From NCBI RefSeq assembly GCF_054482525.1, contig NZ_CM137006.1: a stretch of 64,000 bases of DNA; one strand, given 5' to 3'. Shown in pieces: positions 2,808 to 63,492 of the stretch (position 1 is the first letter of the stretch; the number at the start of each line of letters is the position of its first letter). The position numbers and the translations under genes are program-made. The notes beneath the pieces are model-generated. The model was given only the letters and a program-made list of their open reading frames with translations, ran no database searches and was not told the DNA's origin.

Positions 2808-4019
<1,212 letters not shown>

Positions 4020-5149: not shown

Positions 5150-7160
<2,011 letters not shown>

Positions 7161-22672: not shown

Positions 22673-23518
22673 TTATTTTACGGGCTCAACCGGTAAATCT
22701 GCTCGTGCGCCCCATTCACTCCATGCGCCGTCGTACAGTTTCACGTTTGGCACATCCAGCGTCGCGAGTGCCAACAAAACCACGGCTGCCGTTACACCAG
22801 AGCCGCAGCTGACGATAATCGGTTTGTCATAGCTGACGCCGCGACTAAAAAATATCGCATCCAGTTCATCGGTCGTTTTTAGTTCGCCTTCGCGCACCAG
22901 TTCCGTCCACGGAACGTTCAATGCACCGGGAATATGTCCGCGACGTAAACCTGGGCGAGGTTCATCAACTTCTGCGTTAAAACGTGCAGCCGGGCGGGCA
23001 TCAATAATTTGCGCCGTATTTTCATGGCTTGCCAATAACACATCGGTGACTTTCACCACGGCTTCAGGATTAAACTTGGCGTTAAACTCTCCTTCCGGCA
23101 GCTCTACTGCACCTTCTTCTAACAGCAGATCATCGCGCTGCCAGCCTGCAAGTCCACCCCCCAGAATCGACACTTTCTCTACACCAAAGGTGCGCAGCAT
23201 CCACCATGCTCGTGGGGCTGAGAAAAGATTACCTTCGTCATAGACAATCAGGTGCTTATCCTGGTTAACGCCTAACTCACGCATCGCCACGGCGAACGTT
23301 TCCGGGCGCGGCAGCATGTGCGGAAGCGGGGAAGTGTGATCAGAAAGCGCTTCGATATCAAAAAACACTGCGCCGGGAATATGTCCATTCAGATACTCCT
23401 GAGCAACGTTACGATCTTCCTGTCCAGGCGACGCCATGCGGGCATCGATAATCTGAATTTCCGGGTCATCAATATGTTCGGCGAGCCAGTCGGCTCCTAC
23501 AAACCATGTCGTGGACAT
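22673..23518 (-). CDS. sseA: 3-mercaptopyruvate sulfurtransferase (tandem rhodanese)
   Basis: ORF 22673..23677; start at MSTTWFVGADWL (281 aa); active-site CGSGVTA. Confidence 0.85.
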   Translation of the reverse strand: MSTTWFVGADWLAEHIDDPEIQIIDARMASPGQEDRNVAQEYLNGHIPGAVFFDIEALSDHTSPLPHMLPRPETFAVAMRELGVNQDKHLIVYDEGNLFSAPRAWWMLRTFGVEKVSILGGGLAGWQRDDLLLEEGAVELPEGEFNAKFNPEAVVKVTDVLLASHENTAQIIDARPAARFNAEVDEPRPGLRRGHIPGALNVPWTELVREGELKTTDELDAIFFSRGVSYDKPIIVSCGSGVTAAVVLLALATLDVPNVKLYDGAWSEWGARADLPVEPVK

Positions 23519-41849: not shown

Positions 41850-41940
41850 CATTTTTTGCAAAAAGGGGTAGATGCAATCGGTTACGCTCTGTATAATGCC
41901 GCGGCAATATTTATTAACCACTCTGGTCGAGATATTGCCC
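41850..41940 (+). promoter_or_regulatory. guaBA promoter region
   Basis: tataat -10 hexamer at 41892-41897, AT-rich upstream; the -35 is weak. Confidence 0.4.
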
Positions 41941-55110: not shown

Positions 55111-55295
55111 AAAACCGTAAAGCAAAGATTCTGTTAGTTCGTAGAAACGCTCCTGGCGTCTGGCAGTGGGTGAGACTCAGCAACCGACGGATGGGGTTGA
55201 TGAAATATTACGGGATGATGGATTGTGGTTTTTGCAAAAAGCCCAGCGCGGCGCAAAACCGCTGGAAAAACCATTTGCGCACTAAAGGAGAGTGA
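55107..55295 (+). CDS. Basic micro-protein (C), paralogous N-terminus MKNRKAK, Cys pair
   Basis: 62-aa ORF in track; same MKNRKAK start as ORF B. Confidence 0.5.
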   Translation: MKNRKAKILLVRRNAPGVWQWVRLSNRRMGLMKYYGMMDCGFCKKPSAAQNRWKNHLRTKGE

Positions 55296-57215: not shown

Positions 57216-57565
57216 TGGACTATTCACAGTTAAGTGATTTTGAAATTAACAGAATGGTAGGAGACATAATTTTTAAAGGCCTTTGGGCGTGTAAACCGGA
57301 AACATCAGGGAATAACACCAACAAATGGTATTACGGAAATACTGATACAACTTTTGAGCCATTAAACCCTTTACCTGACTACTGCAATAATCCATCGGAT
57401 GCATGGCCTATTATTGTTGATAATAAAATCAGTCTAACCTGCCACCAATCTCGCGGTGAGTGGTCAGCTGTTTTTAATGTCGAGAACATTTGCTTTCATG
57501 CGAATAATCCACTCCGAGCCGCCATGATTGTATTTCTCATGATGCAGGAAAATCAGAATGGCTAA
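57212..57565 (+). CDS. NinX-like protein
   Basis: 117 aa; N-terminus MDYSQLSDFEIN resembles NinX/DUF2591 family. Confidence 0.5.
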   Translation: MMDYSQLSDFEINRMVGDIIFKGLWACKPETSGNNTNKWYYGNTDTTFEPLNPLPDYCNNPSDAWPIIVDNKISLTCHQSRGEWSAVFNVENICFHANNPLRAAMIVFLMMQENQNG

Positions 57566-57896
57566 ATCAGCAGCAGAGCGCAAAGCCGCTCAGAGAGCCA
57601 GACAAGCTGCATCTGGTGTGCGTAAGCTGGAGATTGTGCTTGATGCTCAGGAAATTGAAATGCTTGAGCGTAACTGTGCCGCACGTCGCCCCGGGCGTGC
57701 GCCTTACGAATTTGGTGAGTATATAGCGTTACTGATCCGCCAGGATGATGCACGCGTGCGCGGGCGTATAAAATCGATCAGTAGAAAACGTTGCGGTAAG
57801 TGCGGCGAGAGAGTTCCCGTTAATTCATGCCCGTGTAATGGTGACTCGCAATGCTGGGTGACTAAAGGCTGGTATGAAACGAAATTAATAGTGTGA
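57558..57896 (+). CDS. Small basic protein with C-terminal Cys cluster (possible regulator)
   Basis: 112 aa; CGKCGERVPVNSCPCNGDSQC zinc-ribbon-like; last gene before terminator and terminase. Confidence 0.45.
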   Translation: MAKSAAERKAAQRARQAASGVRKLEIVLDAQEIEMLERNCAARRPGRAPYEFGEYIALLIRQDDARVRGRIKSISRKRCGKCGERVPVNSCPCNGDSQCWVTKGWYETKLIV

Positions 57897-57945
57897 CATG
57901 TCACGAGTAGATTATGCATGATGAATTTGACGGGTTTTGAATACT

Positions 57946-57971
57946 GCCGCCAACTATGGCGGCTTTATTTT
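57946..57971 (+). terminator. Rho-independent terminator upstream of terminase small subunit
   Basis: gccgccaactatggcggc hairpin followed by tttatttt. Confidence 0.6.
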
Positions 57972-58014
57972 GCATGGTACTATTACCACAACGGTAACTA
58001 TTACCACGGTGGTT

Positions 58015-58611
58015 ATGATGCCTGCTGAACCTAAAACCTATAAACGCAAATCAACGCAATTTAAGCCACTAACAGCAATGCAGGAGGCTTATTGCCAGTC
58101 ATACATCAAAACGCCTGAAAACCAGACTCAGGCAGCGATTAACGCAGGATTCTCCCCAAATACAGCGGCAGTTAAAGCCAGTGTCATGATGCGCGATGAA
58201 CGCATTCAGAAACGGATTGCCGAGTTGATGGAGGAGCGCAACAAACGAATGCGCGTCAGTGCTGATTACGTTCTCATGCGCCTGGTGGAGATCGACCAGA
58301 TGGACGTTATCGACATCCTCAACGACGATGGGAGCCTTAAACCAATCCGTGAGTGGCCGAAAATCTGGCGCACTACGCTTAGTGGCTTTGATCTGTCATC
58401 GACCATCATGAACATGAACGAGGATTCGATAGAGACAATCCTCAAAAAAATTAAATGGCCTGACAAGGTGAAGAACCTTGAGCTGATTGGTAAGCATGTT
58501 GATGTCAATGCGTTCAAAGAACGTCTGGATGTTAATGTGAATGTGACAATTGCTGATCGCATAGCGGCAGCCAGGAAGAGACTGAAAGAACGTCAGGATG
58601 GCAATCAGTGA
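58015..58611 (+). CDS. Terminase small subunit
   Basis: ORF 57937..58611; start placed after terminator at MMPAEPK; sequence resembles small-terminase proteins; directly precedes large subunit. Confidence 0.7.
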   Translation: MMPAEPKTYKRKSTQFKPLTAMQEAYCQSYIKTPENQTQAAINAGFSPNTAAVKASVMMRDERIQKRIAELMEERNKRMRVSADYVLMRLVEIDQMDVIDILNDDGSLKPIREWPKIWRTTLSGFDLSSTIMNMNEDSIETILKKIKWPDKVKNLELIGKHVDVNAFKERLDVNVNVTIADRIAAARKRLKERQDGNQ

Positions 58612-60083
58612 CAGATACAGCGTTATCTCCTGAAGAGCAGTTAATTGAGGATATTGCAGGGTTCACTCACGATCCGCTTGGCTATGCCCTCTATGCGTTC
58701 CCGTGGGGGGAAGAGGGGACTGAACTGGCACATGCTACCGGCCCACGTCAGTGGCAGGCCGATGCGTTCCGAGAGATACGTGATCACCTGCAGAATCCAG
58801 AGACGCGTTATCAGCCGCTTATGCTGGCACGTGCTTCTGGTCACGGTATTGGTAAATCCGCATTCATCTCAATGCTCATCAACTGGGGCATGTCCACTTG
58901 CGAGGATTGTAAGGTCGTGGTGACCGCCAACACCGACAACCAGCTACGAACGAAGACCTGGCCGGAAATTATCAAGTGGTCGAACCTTGCTATCACGAAA
59001 GACTGGTTTACCTGTACCGCTACCGCGATGTACAGCAATGACCCTGGGCACGACAAGCGGTGGCGGGCTGACGCAATACCCTGGTCTGAGCACAACACTG
59101 AGGCATTCGCCGGACTACACAACGAGCGCAAACGCATCATCGTGGTGTTTGATGAAGCGTCGAACATTGCGGATCTGGTGTGGGAAGTTGCCGAGGGTGC
59201 GCTTACGGACGAAGACACTGAGATTATTTGGGTGGCGTTCGGAAACCCTACACGTAACACCGGGCGTTTTCGCGAATGTTTCCGCAAATATAAACACCGC
59301 TGGAAAACTGCGCAGATTGACAGCCGGACGGTGGAAGGCACTAACAAACAGCAGTTGCAGAAATGGGTTGATGACTACGGGGAAGACAGCGACTTCGTTA
59401 AAATCCGTGTGCGTGGCATATTCCCTGATGCATCTGAATTGCAGTTTATCCCTACCGGTCTTACTGACGAGGCAATGAAACGGGTGGTAACCGCTGCGCA
59501 GGTTGCACATGCTCCGGTGATAATCGGCGTTGACCCGGCATACTCCGGCGTTGATGACGCTGTGATATACCTGCGGCAGGGGCTACACAGTAAGGTGCTG
59601 TGGACTGGCAACAAGACTACCGACGATCTGATTATGGCGAAGCGTATCGCTGACTTTGAAGACCAGTATCAGGCTGACGCGGTGTTCATCGACTTCGGTT
59701 ACGGAACCGGTTTGAAGTCAATCGGTGACGGCTGGGGTCGTACATGGCAACTTGTTCCGTTCGGTGGCGCGTCTACTGACCCGCAGATGCTCAACAAGCG
59801 TGGGGAGATGTTCAACTCATGCAAGACATGGCTGAGGCTCGGTGGCATGCTGGATGACCAGGAAACAGCGGACGACCTGTCGGCAGCAGAGTACAAAGTT
59901 CGAGTGGACGGTAAAATCGTTATCGAACCGAAGGAAGATATCAAAGAGCGACTTGGGCGTTCTCCTGGTAAAGGCGATGCGCTACTGCTGACGTTTGCGT
60001 TCCCTGTGTCGAAGCGTCTGCGAATTCCCGGTCAGCAGAACCAGCAAGGCAAGGCCATCACAGATTACGATCCCTATGCTTAA
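58608..60083 (+). CDS. Terminase large subunit (ATPase + nuclease)
   Basis: 491 aa; Walker A-like GHGIGKS; overlaps small subunit stop. Confidence 0.85.
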   Translation: MTDTALSPEEQLIEDIAGFTHDPLGYALYAFPWGEEGTELAHATGPRQWQADAFREIRDHLQNPETRYQPLMLARASGHGIGKSAFISMLINWGMSTCEDCKVVVTANTDNQLRTKTWPEIIKWSNLAITKDWFTCTATAMYSNDPGHDKRWRADAIPWSEHNTEAFAGLHNERKRIIVVFDEASNIADLVWEVAEGALTDEDTEIIWVAFGNPTRNTGRFRECFRKYKHRWKTAQIDSRTVEGTNKQQLQKWVDDYGEDSDFVKIRVRGIFPDASELQFIPTGLTDEAMKRVVTAAQVAHAPVIIGVDPAYSGVDDAVIYLRQGLHSKVLWTGNKTTDDLIMAKRIADFEDQYQADAVFIDFGYGTGLKSIGDGWGRTWQLVPFGGASTDPQMLNKRGEMFNSCKTWLRLGGMLDDQETADDLSAAEYKVRVDGKIVIEPKEDIKERLGRSPGKGDALLLTFAFPVSKRLRIPGQQNQQGKAITDYDPYA

Positions 60084-60129
60084 TCCGCTGGTGGGGATAA
60101 TGTCGTTGATATCCTCTGGTGAGGATAAA

Positions 60130-60156
60130 ACAAAGCCAGCTCATAGGCTGGCTGTT
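60130..60156 (-). terminator. Terminator of reverse-strand moron transcript
   Basis: On minus strand: agccagcctatgagctggct hairpin followed by ttgtttt. Confidence 0.5.
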
Positions 60157-60173
60157 TGTGACATGTCACAGAG

Positions 60174-60596
60174 CTAGAAAATAATTTCATCAAATGCAGC
60201 ATTTATTGCCTTTGCTTCGCTAATGGCGCCTTGTTTATCGACAATAGCTTTTTTACCAAGCACCTCGGCAAGGCACTGTAGCTTCATGTTGTATAAGTGT
60301 TCGCTCATGTAATCATTATCACTTTTTGCTTTAGCGCAAACAGAGCGAGAAATATCAAACACATCGCCTTTTTCCATTTCAGAACGTTGTGCTGTTATCC
60401 AGTCATGGAACGTAACGCTAGTACCATGGTCTTCGCTAAGAGTTAACCCGGTCAGTCCCTCACTCTGAATTACTTCGTAATGCATTTCATTACCAGCAAA
60501 AACGCCATAAAAAACGCAGTCTTCAGCCTGAACGATACGAGAATATTTTAATGGCCATTCATTTAGATACTTAGCCAACATATCAATTGTTTTCAT
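60174..60596 (-). CDS. Hypothetical 140-aa protein (reverse-oriented moron)
   Basis: Opposite strand to flanking terminase and portal genes; no recognisable motif; own terminator. Confidence 0.55.
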   Translation of the reverse strand: MKTIDMLAKYLNEWPLKYSRIVQAEDCVFYGVFAGNEMHYEVIQSEGLTGLTLSEDHGTSVTFHDWITAQRSEMEKGDVFDISRSVCAKAKSDNDYMSEHLYNMKLQCLAEVLGKKAIVDKQGAISEAKAINAAFDEIIF

Positions 60597-60794: not shown

Positions 60795-60871
60795 TGGCGC
60801 GGCATGCAGGATTCGAACCTGCGACCAACCGCTTAGAAGGCGGTTGCTCTGTCCAACTGAGCTAATGCCAC
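60795..60871 (-). tRNA. tRNA-Arg (anticodon UCU), phage-encoded
   Basis: Hand-folded cloverleaf: acceptor GUGGCAU/AUGCCGC, D-arm GCUCAGUUGGACAGAGC, anticodon stem ACCGC/GCGGU with loop CUUCUAA, T-arm CGCAGGUUCGAAUCCUGC, 3' GCCA encoded. Confidence 0.85.
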
Positions 60872-63199: not shown

Positions 63200-63492
63200 C
63201 AGATTACGAAGACGATCAACTGAAAGAAGAAAACGCCCGTAAGCAACGTGACATGGCGCAGCGTGAAATTGATGACATTCGCTTTGTCATGAGCAGTGAA
63301 CAGGGGCGTCGCGTTGTCTGGTCGGTGCTGGAGAAAGGCCGTGTGTTTTCCGCTATCTCACCGATGGACGCTATGGCAATGGCATTTAATGAGGGGCAAC
63401 GCAATCTGGCGCTGGAACTGTTTCAGCGCGTTATGGCGCATTGCCCTGAACAGTATTTGAAGATGGCCAAAGAGGCCAGTGAACAGGAGTGA
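63196..63492 (+). CDS. Hypothetical head-morphogenesis protein
   Basis: 98 aa, overlapping portal stop. Confidence 0.45.
   Translation: MTDYEDDQLKEENARKQRDMAQREIDDIRFVMSSEQGRRVVWSVLEKGRVFSAISPMDAMAMAFNEGQRNLALELFQRVMAHCPEQYLKMAKEASEQE

Follow-up and report, generated by a model that had tools for sequence, protein, structure and literature searches.

The ribbon-helix-helix (RHH) regulators of the Arc/Mnt type, known from P22 and from plasmids, act at a dyad site which is genetically linked to the regulator gene; they use one compound operator, and this operator lies over a promoter. MatP, likewise an RHH-type reader, recognizes matS, a 13-bp palindrome of the form GTGAC-RNY-GTCAC with a 3-bp spacer, which is dispersed in single copies away from promoters. 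MatP systems retain the 3-bp spacer though the half-sites change, as in Photorhabdus (GTTACNNNGTAAC), and in a survey of 500 prophages true matS was found to be avoided by prophages. The Q-type switch of phage lambda is a further system of comparison. In the SopB/sopC centromere repeats of N15 and the KorB operators of IncP plasmids identical palindromes are scattered in a mobile genome and are served by one element-encoded reader.

Here we compare with these systems a 12-bp palindrome from a 64-kb stretch of DNA (the window) which contains a phiV10/epsilon15-like (Uetakevirus) prophage. The relevant features are:

57558 to 57896, plus strand: gene of a 112-aa putative regulator of the phiV10 gp55/epsilon15 gp49/N15 gp46 family, the proposed palindrome binder.
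57893 to 57904: palindrome copy A, GTGACATGTCAC; its positions 2-4 are the TGA stop codon (57894-57896) of the 112-aa gene.
57914 to 57940, plus strand: mini-ORF (MHDEFDGF and stop), the deletion remnant of a 70-aa cassette ORF.
57946 to 57972, plus strand: intrinsic terminator, GCCGCCAACTATGGCGGC then TTTATTTT, 41 nt 3' of copy A and ahead of terS.
58015 to 60083, plus strand: terS (58015-58611, likely ATG start) and terL (58608-60083).
60134 to 60153: bidirectional terminator hairpin with a strong minus-strand T-run (TTGTTTTAT) and a weaker one on the plus strand (TGTTTGT).
60157 to 60170: palindrome copy B, TGTGACATGTCACA, core at 60158-60169, flanked by the terL terminator and by the stop codon of a cassette gene on the minus strand.
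60174 to 60596, minus strand: this variable cassette gene, 140 aa, phrog_4846.

Exact matches to GTGACATGTCAC occur at two places in the window, 57893-57904 and 60158-60169, and the 64 kb hold no further match at up to one mismatch. The palindromes stand where a sequence-only reading had located them, the first across the stop codon of the ORF before terS, the second beside a terminator, i.e., 4 bp past the hairpin and 74 bp past the terL stop (60083). Copy A is a perfect palindrome limited to 12 bp because its flanks, t...g, fail to extend it. Copy B is perfect over 14 bp, and both copies have 13 bp in common (TGTGACATGTCAC). The window contains 16 perfect 12-bp palindromes against 15.6 expected. 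In 1000 first-order Markov simulations some palindrome of this length recurred in 6.4% of the runs, and did so within 3 kb in 0.6%; a shuffle test of the motif gave 0.20 expected matches against the 2 observed. Judged inside the window alone, the repeat is only moderately unusual. Its real significance derives from exact triplicate copies in several complete genomes and from conservation across genera. Neither observation that would have refuted the sequence-only reading was made: elsewhere in the window the motif is not common, and relatives have it in the equivalent places.

Each complete relative from E. coli, Salmonella or Enterobacter contains the exact sequence three times, and the count in HEMP4, which shares 99.9% identity with the window, is exactly three. 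Beyond the window, about 17.6 kb further on, the third copy (site C) closes the structural operon and adjoins a terminator. phiV10, Tyrion (Enterobacter) and E15 (Salmonella) have the exact 12-mer at the same three positions, and Klebsiella phages have it at two positions; the terminators beside it have unrelated sequences in these phages. At site A of phiV10 the variant GTGACATGTTAC shows one mismatch. About 76 of 80 close relatives retain copy A, as do Tyrion, E15 and the Klebsiella phages. For phiV10, ZF40 and N15 alike, the Poisson P of three copies in one genome is about 1e-5. Sequence comparison indicates that the palindrome is under strong purifying selection. The sequence-only reading had considered the palindromes as brackets of the terminase gene pair. 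This bracketing is incidental because every complete relative has the third copy at the end of the structural operon, and the terminase framing fails again in other phage types, where the motif follows the gene of the 112-aa protein and is unconnected with terminase genes.

Structure modeling predicts that the 112-aa protein is a DNA binder of RHH fold whose C-terminal domain is rich in Cys (pattern CxxC...C...C); a basic helix at the N-terminus is conserved. The DksA/TraR zinc-finger proteins (PF01258), in which a C4 finger comes behind a long helix, were considered as a further group for comparison. Pfam and PDB sequence searches with this protein returned no match, and a literature search for it found nothing. 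The search for the motif and five variants yielded unrelated primers only; the ZX5 paper mentions neither the palindrome nor the protein. The family is present in only 153 of 50,697 phage records. In Uetakevirus its gene closes the early-right operon, and then come the site, a strong terminator and terS; Tyrion and E15 share the arrangement of copy A, terminator and terS with the window. The palindrome itself, with a stem of at most 4-5 bp and no T-run, is not an intrinsic terminator; the terminators are separate hairpins in its neighborhood. Between the regulator gene and the terminator the sole promoter candidate is GTGACA-18-CATGAT (9 of 12 positions), which as a promoter is not conserved in other genera.

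The motif GTGAC-NN-GTCAC is situated on or beside the stop codon of the 112-aa homologue in at least six lineages. In the Pectobacterium myovirus ZF40 TGTGACATGTCACA occurs three times, once 2 bp past the homologue's stop codon. N15-like linear-plasmid phages carry three copies of the motif, in N15 as GTGAC-TG-GTCAC with one of them on the gp46 stop codon, and KpLi5 and MStein-2023a share this stop-codon site. A P2-like Yersinia phage carries TTGTGACGCGTCACAA, and AH07 and L090 carry GTGAC-CT-GTCAC, each on the stop codon; integrase-adjacent variants likewise have the motif at the stop codon of the homologue. In Vibrio K303 GTGAC-AC-GTCAC occurs twice within 3 kb, with one copy 20 bp upstream of terS. 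An unbiased scan covered 80 non-Uetakevirus viral loci containing the 14-mer, with the homologue sought inside the retrieved fragment: 22 of the 80 encode it, and in 15 of these 22 the site is at most 15 bp from the gene end. Podo-, myo- and siphoviruses that infect Enterobacterales and Vibrio include carriers of the protein-site pair. Across lineages neither the half-sites nor the 2-bp spacing change, and Y...R flanks are found throughout; the central dinucleotide depends on the lineage. In parallel, the basic helix is conserved among homologues and the β-strand residues vary by lineage. A terminator lies beside the site in 16% of 96 distinct contexts compared with about 2.5% of random positions; the terminator-adjacent sites include eight placed solely 5' of the terminator and one placed solely 3' of it.

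Because the motif travels with the 112-aa gene across unrelated temperate phages, it is most likely the docking site of the gene product and not a marker of the terminase module. Of the three roles proposed in the sequence-only reading, regulator binding, recombination boundary and packaging signal, the first is best supported, with the amendment that the likely binder is a phage protein, not host CRP/FNR. It is probable that the palindrome is the binding site of the protein encoded at 57558-57896. A dimer would sit on GTGAC-NN-GTCAC; the conserved basic helices would read the invariant GTGAC half-sites and the β-ribbon would lie over the variable center. Taken as a whole, the explanation that the palindrome is the operator of the RHH/Cys-rich protein at operon junctions has, in our judgment, slightly better than even prospects.

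The predicted RHH fold and the dyad linked to the gene are shared with regulator/operator pairs of the Arc/Mnt/CopG type. However, Arc and Mnt lack the Cys-rich domain and the conserved N-terminal basic helix, and family membership of the 112-aa protein is not detectable by sequence in Pfam. Their operators cover promoters, whereas the sites described here are at operon 3' ends, on the regulator's own stop codon or within genes; promoter-like matches are weak and the palindromes do not overlap promoters. Further, the single compound operator of Arc/Mnt contrasts with three dispersed single sites per genome. In this latter respect the SopB and KorB systems are similar, yet their reader is of the ParB type, not RHH, and a partition ATPase partner is missing here. 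Uetakeviruses integrate and partition is not needed. In N15 sopC-type repeats and the GTGAC-TG-GTCAC system exist side by side.

What the bound protein would do is suggested by the location of the sites. Site A ends the early-right operon directly ahead of the terminator preceding terS, site B marks the convergent junction past terL and site C the end of the structural operon; on the terminated strand, each of the three lies 5' of an intrinsic terminator. A role in transcriptional control at these junctions, with the bound protein governing the passage of RNA polymerase, is a tentative proposal, somewhat less than an even bet. That this control specifically amounts to antitermination or late-gene switching is, on present indications, unlikely. 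Of the two directions, we prefer the one in which the protein opens a gate and could let transcription run past terminators A and C into the late genes because it is the last early product, placed where lambdoid phages have Q. The opposite direction, reinforcement of the boundaries, is nearly as likely.

The order of regulator gene (57558-57896), terminator (57946-57972) and terS (58015) is reminiscent of the lambda Q-type switch, and no other late regulator is annotated in Uetakeviruses. On the other hand, the 112-aa protein does not belong to a Q family (e.g., PF06323; it has no Pfam match), the site has no clear accompanying promoter, and true Q-family genes coexist with the homologue in N15, KpLi5, AH07, L092 and L094. 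One may speculate about a previously undescribed, site-specific terminator gate in which a last early RHH/Zn protein docks 5' of terminators and permits late read-through; we regard this as a long shot. In epsilon15/phiV10-like phages such a gate would take the place of the Q-type switch, and N15-, P2- and ZF40-like phages would have adopted it anew at other operon ends. Even less likely than this is a phage counterpart of, or interference with, host MatP/matS, an idea prompted by the identical half-sites. A role as activator site of late promoters (in P1 late promoters a palindrome is located near -22) was rejected as a general one: site C abuts a terminator and a -10 element conserved at a fixed distance is absent in either direction.

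We found no description of late-gene control in epsilon15/phiV10-type phages, which serve as typing and reporter phages for O157 and Salmonella; a candidate regulator is now tied to three precise DNA sites. Binding shown for one member would annotate a family of several hundred proteins, including that of the well-studied N15. The sites also mark the comings and goings of accessory-gene cassettes, which is of use in phage engineering and in reading prophage mosaicism. Further, the one-base difference from host matS prompts two questions, namely what enables RHH proteins to tell spacings apart and whether MatP is avoided or exploited by phages.

Alternatively, the palindrome may operate as RNA, i.e., a transcribed hairpin GUGA-CNNG-UCAC may affect the terminator, the stability of the mRNA 3' end or translation, with or without binding of the RNA by the 112-aa protein. 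Several observations are in line with this: the site is 5' of terminators on the transcribed strand, in several contigs the ATG at its center serves as a start codon preceded by GAGGT as Shine-Dalgarno sequence, the arms are extended in some lineages (GCCGTGAC..GTCACGGC; TTGTGAC..GTCACAA), and the phiV10 variant retains a G-U pair on the plus strand. Yet the stem displays no covariation and is invariant across 31-100% protein divergence, an indication that a specific sequence is read rather than structure alone. The core stem has just 4 bp, the flanks are Y...R even if they are non-complementary (t...g, c...a), the protein is predicted to have a DNA-binding RHH fold, and site B would require action on the strand opposite to that of A and C. 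Accordingly, we consider an RNA element improbable.

Slightly less probable still is a boundary of recombination or cassette exchange, with the palindrome as a hotspot or target for the insertion, deletion or swapping of morons. Homology ends at 60169 for 48 of 80 close relatives and at 57906 for 21 of 80, and beyond both points small gene cassettes are alternative, absent or inserted. In about 23 relatives the 70-aa cassette ORF occupies the place of the mini-ORF, and in place of the 140-aa gene relatives have divergent alleles, unrelated genes or nothing. In L039 terminator and palindrome are duplicated around an insert of roughly 350 bp, and the cassettes of sites A and B have a segment of about 24 nt in common, in opposite orientation. 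Thus, the sequence-only reading was right that mosaic breakpoints coincide with both palindromes, but not in the notion of module exchange: the cassettes beside each palindrome vary while terS-terL is a conserved block between them and is not the exchanged unit. Moreover, any strongly selected island should have breakpoints at its edge, and their coincidence is therefore no proof of a mechanism. A recombinase or nuclease which co-varies with the site was not seen, the ZF40 and N15 copies within coding regions are not at mosaic joints, and some of the alternatives at site B are diverged alleles of a single gene family.

Might near-matS copies recruit or titrate the host's Ter-macrodomain protein MatP? 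The GTGAC/GTCAC half-sites are identical, the reader would be of RHH type in both cases, and single palindromes are dispersed away from promoters here too. However, all copies in all lineages are 12 bp long with a 2-bp instead of a 3-bp spacer, and the linkage to the regulator's stop codon would be left unexplained. A MatP site is very unlikely.

Packaging signals, pac or TerS-binding sites flanking the terminase genes, are hardly credible. Copies A and B do flank terS-terL and one Vibrio K303 copy is close to terS, but the third copy is 17.6 kb away at the structural operon end, the sites in ZF40, N15 and AH07 are far from terminase genes, and N15, a cos phage, has its defined ends elsewhere. 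The start of the phiV10 record inside a site was considered as a physical genome end and dismissed; the record was merely cut behind the stop codon of the last gene, and this site A is mismatched. A host CRP/FNR-family site or a chance repeat is the least plausible of all: the pentamers TGTGA and TCACA are present and the in-window statistics by themselves are modest, but the pentamers are 4 bp and not 6 bp apart, the conserved core is GTGAC-N2-GTCAC with Y...R flanks and not the CRP-like half-sites named in the sequence-only reading, since neither their first T nor their last A is conserved (N15 and AH07 have CGTGAC), FNR half-sites (TTGAT) are absent with the 4-bp spacing as the only match to TTGAT-N4-ATCAA, and chance is excluded because the motif is conserved across genera and phage families.

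Other repeated palindromes were encountered in two of the loci and were set aside as separate systems; they were not used as evidence of covariation. L092 has five copies of GGGACCNNGGTCCC, which presumably resemble sopC-type sites, and L094 has tandem pairs of TGTGCGCACA which resemble promoter-proximal operators.

A phiV10/epsilon15-like (Uetakevirus) prophage, 99.9% identical to phage HEMP4, fills the window from about 45 kb to its end. The sequence-only reading had reported two palindromes here, and its description is borne out: GTGACATGTCAC is present at 57893-57904 (copy A) and 60158-60169 (copy B), and at up to one mismatch no further match exists in the 64-kb window, i.e., the motif is not common elsewhere in it. 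The local gene order is NinX-like gene, 112-aa "transcriptional regulator" (phrog_536), copy A, strong terminator, terS, terL, terminator, copy B, minus-strand cassette gene, tRNA-Arg, and portal.

57558-57896, plus strand: ORF of the 112-aa regulator
57893-57904: copy A, a perfect palindrome of 12 bp; the TGA stop codon of the regulator ORF falls on its bases 2-4
57946-57972: strong terminator between copy A and terS
60157-60170: copy B, a perfect palindrome of 14 bp, 74 bp past terL and 4 bp past a hairpin acting as bidirectional terminator
60795-60871, minus strand: tRNA-Arg (anticodon tct), between the copy B cassette and the portal-side genes; annotated in several relatives too

Within the window taken by itself, the repeat stands out only moderately. 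The window has 16 perfect palindromes of 12 bp; a repeated palindrome arises in 6.4% of simulated sequences, and a repeat within 3 kb in 0.6%. One other perfect 12-bp palindrome, TTTTTGCAAAAA, occurs twice (41853-41864 and 55229-55240). A near-copy, GTGACATGGCGC, lies in coding sequence of the gene after portal (63248-63259); phiV10 (5306) and over half of 80 close relatives have the one-mismatch form GTGACATGGCAC at this spot.

The start of terS deserves a comment. TTG 57937 is the mechanical ORF start and the annotated phiV10 start, and would put the terminator within terS; ATG 58015, behind GGTGG, is more plausible. Between terminator and terS start are tandem inverted repeats, GGTACTATTACC (57976-57987) and GGTAACTATTACC (57993-58005), which could serve as an activator-dependent late promoter or as a TerS/pac element. 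They are kept upstream of terS in Tyrion and Klebsiella phage ST11-OXA245phi3.2, even with a moron separating copy A from terS. The phiV10 GenBank record starts inside copy A because it was cut after the stop codon of the last gene.

Copies A and B are both found, at matching positions, in nearly all of the 80 close relatives. The exact 12-mer recurs at the corresponding sites of Enterobacter phage Tyrion, Salmonella phage E15, and Klebsiella phages, whose terminase DNA matches the window at only about 80% identity and whose neighbouring terminators are unrelated in sequence. In every complete genome a third copy (C), again exact, comes immediately downstream of the final structural-operon gene, and an intrinsic terminator starts 1-3 nt later (phiV10 19493; Tyrion 20377; E15 19727; HEMP4 32792). 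By comparison with these genomes, copy C of the present prophage is expected about 17.6 kb past copy B, beyond the end of the window. Because of this third copy the bracketing of the terminase pair, correctly described as to position, is incidental.

Homologues of the 112-aa protein are known well outside Uetakevirus. In the Pectobacterium myovirus ZF40 (67% identity) TGTGACATGTCACA is present in three exact copies, one of them 2 bp past the homologue's stop codon. N15 (35% identity) has GTGAC-TG-GTCAC exactly three times, one on the gp46 stop codon, and lacks one-mismatch forms of it; KpLi5 and MStein-2023a possess the same stop-codon site. The stop codon carries TTGTGAC-GC-GTCACAA in a P2-like Yersinia phage and GTGAC-CT-GTCAC in AH07 and the locus L090, with the gene beside xis/int. 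Vibrio K303 has GTGAC-AC-GTCAC twice within 3 kb, once 20 bp upstream of terS. Three GTGAC-NN-GTCAC sites in a genome of 40-48 kb have a P of ~1e-5. In an unbiased scan viral contigs were searched for the 14-mer and 80 loci were fetched, none of which (0/80) contains a Uetakevirus terL. The homologue, a family found in only 0.3% of phage records, is encoded within the fragment in 22 of them, and in 15 of these 22 the site is no more than 15 bp from the gene's end. Four homologue-bearing loci have no site in the visible 3-5 kb on either side.

In lineages whose regulator gene adjoins integrase, a conserved CCTGNTGCAGCAGG element comes next after the palindrome, and then the Shine-Dalgarno of a xis-like gene (loci L090 ~5370-5385; L096, i.e., AH07, ~22790-22810; L131, L164, L168, L130). 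In several non-Uetakevirus contigs the palindrome can overlap a translation start: its central ATG is apparently the start codon, behind a GAGGT Shine-Dalgarno, of proteins beginning MSH... or MSQ... (L114 5082; L115 8174; L118 2629; L119 419; L127 1440; L160 6058; L165 206).

Invariant across lineages are the GTGAC/GTCAC half-sites, the 2-bp spacing, and the Y...R flanks. The centre is AT, CT, TG, GC, or AC according to lineage, usually uniform inside one genome. The protein keeps its basic helix (ERK-AQR-R), with R8 and R13 nearly invariant, and predicted β-strand residues differ between lineages with different site centres. This fits a ribbon-helix-helix (RHH) dimer which, by its inferred geometry, would place the ribbon over the centre and read the half-sites with its basic helices. 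The palindrome is probably an operator, bound by the RHH protein encoded next to it, which has a putative Zn domain. A host MatP site would share the half-sites, and the palindrome equals the E. coli consensus matS, GTGACATTGTCAC, less one base; yet MatP systems hold a 3-bp spacer even where half-sites change, prophages avoid true matS, and the linkage to the regulator gene is left unexplained. Compensatory changes in the palindrome arms are wholly absent across lineages, which favours recognition of the specific sequence over a hairpin that acts through structure only; a role at the RNA level appears quite improbable.

Phage RHH regulators with palindromic sites are a known type. The proposed operator system considered here differs from the usual ones by the added putative Zn domain, a site on the regulator's own stop codon, dispersed operon-end sites in three copies, and matS-like half-sites. 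A literature search for the motif and five variants yielded nothing relevant, and a paper on a close relative mentions neither site nor protein.

Only tentatively do we propose that the operator acts on transcription across operon junctions in this phage. A gate-opening role is slightly favoured, since the protein comes last among the early products and occupies the spot of Q in lambdoid phages, ahead of terminator and late genes; at the operon-end sites it would open the way for transcription past the terminator into the late genes. Every Uetakevirus copy is followed, on the strand that is terminated, by an intrinsic terminator (A and C plus, B minus). A strict terminator is within 60 nt in 16% of 96 distinct contexts, against about 2.5% of random positions, and eight sites lie only on the 5' side of the terminator and one only on its 3' side, figures which only about six independent contexts underlie. 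The majority of sites have no terminator nearby; some are within genes, some contain a start codon. Against gate-opening count the true Q genes which share a phage with the homologue in N15, KpLi5, AH07, and the loci L092 and L094, and the fact that RHH proteins are typically repressors or architectural factors.

Breakpoints were read from an alignment of the 80 relatives to the window. Homology is lost in 48 loci right at the final base of copy B (60169) and comes back near 60592. The intervening stretch holds divergent alleles or unrelated genes, or is empty, with ~25 bp left (L015, L020, L021). In 21 loci homology stops at 57906, 2 bp past copy A, and an additional ~200 bp encode a 70-aa ORF, of which the window retains a remnant, MHDEFDGF* (57914-57940). 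In L039 terminator and palindrome are duplicated around an insert. Mosaic breakpoints coincide with the palindromes, as had been predicted; the variable units are small cassettes beside each copy instead of the terminase block. We give little credence to the palindrome being a recombination hotspot. A packaging role is unlikely in view of the distant third copy and the site positions in N15, ZF40, and AH07. The suspected CRP/FNR site is ruled out by wrong spacing and non-conserved outer bases.

In relatives, the 70-aa ORF of the cassette at copy A (L005 ~3120-3330) ends in YDEFDG(L/F), and ~24 nt for a near-identical tail, MK(Y/D)EFD(G/R)F, end the minus-strand gene or remnant beside copy B in E15 and 'empty' loci (L089 2340-2365). 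This shared tail suggests that sites A and B may once have exchanged material in opposite orientation. In L086 (ST11-OXA245phi3.2) a LexA-box-like TACTGTTTAAATATACAGTA (~1600-1650) precedes a umuD-like moron inserted right after copy A, which would be an SOS-controlled cassette at this junction.

Separate families of dispersed palindromes, GCGACC-NN-GGTCGC in N15 (33481, 35932, 41126, 45563) and GGGACC-NN-GGTCCC in L092 (65, 336, 2804, 7151, 8481), are independent of GTGAC-NN-GTCAC; they look like the SopB/sopC-type centromere repeats that N15-like plasmid prophages carry. The lambdoid contig L094 has tandem TGTGCGCACA pairs, 24-25 bp apart, upstream of three genes, one a holin (1589/1613; 2530/2555; 7062/7086), which look like a separate operator system.
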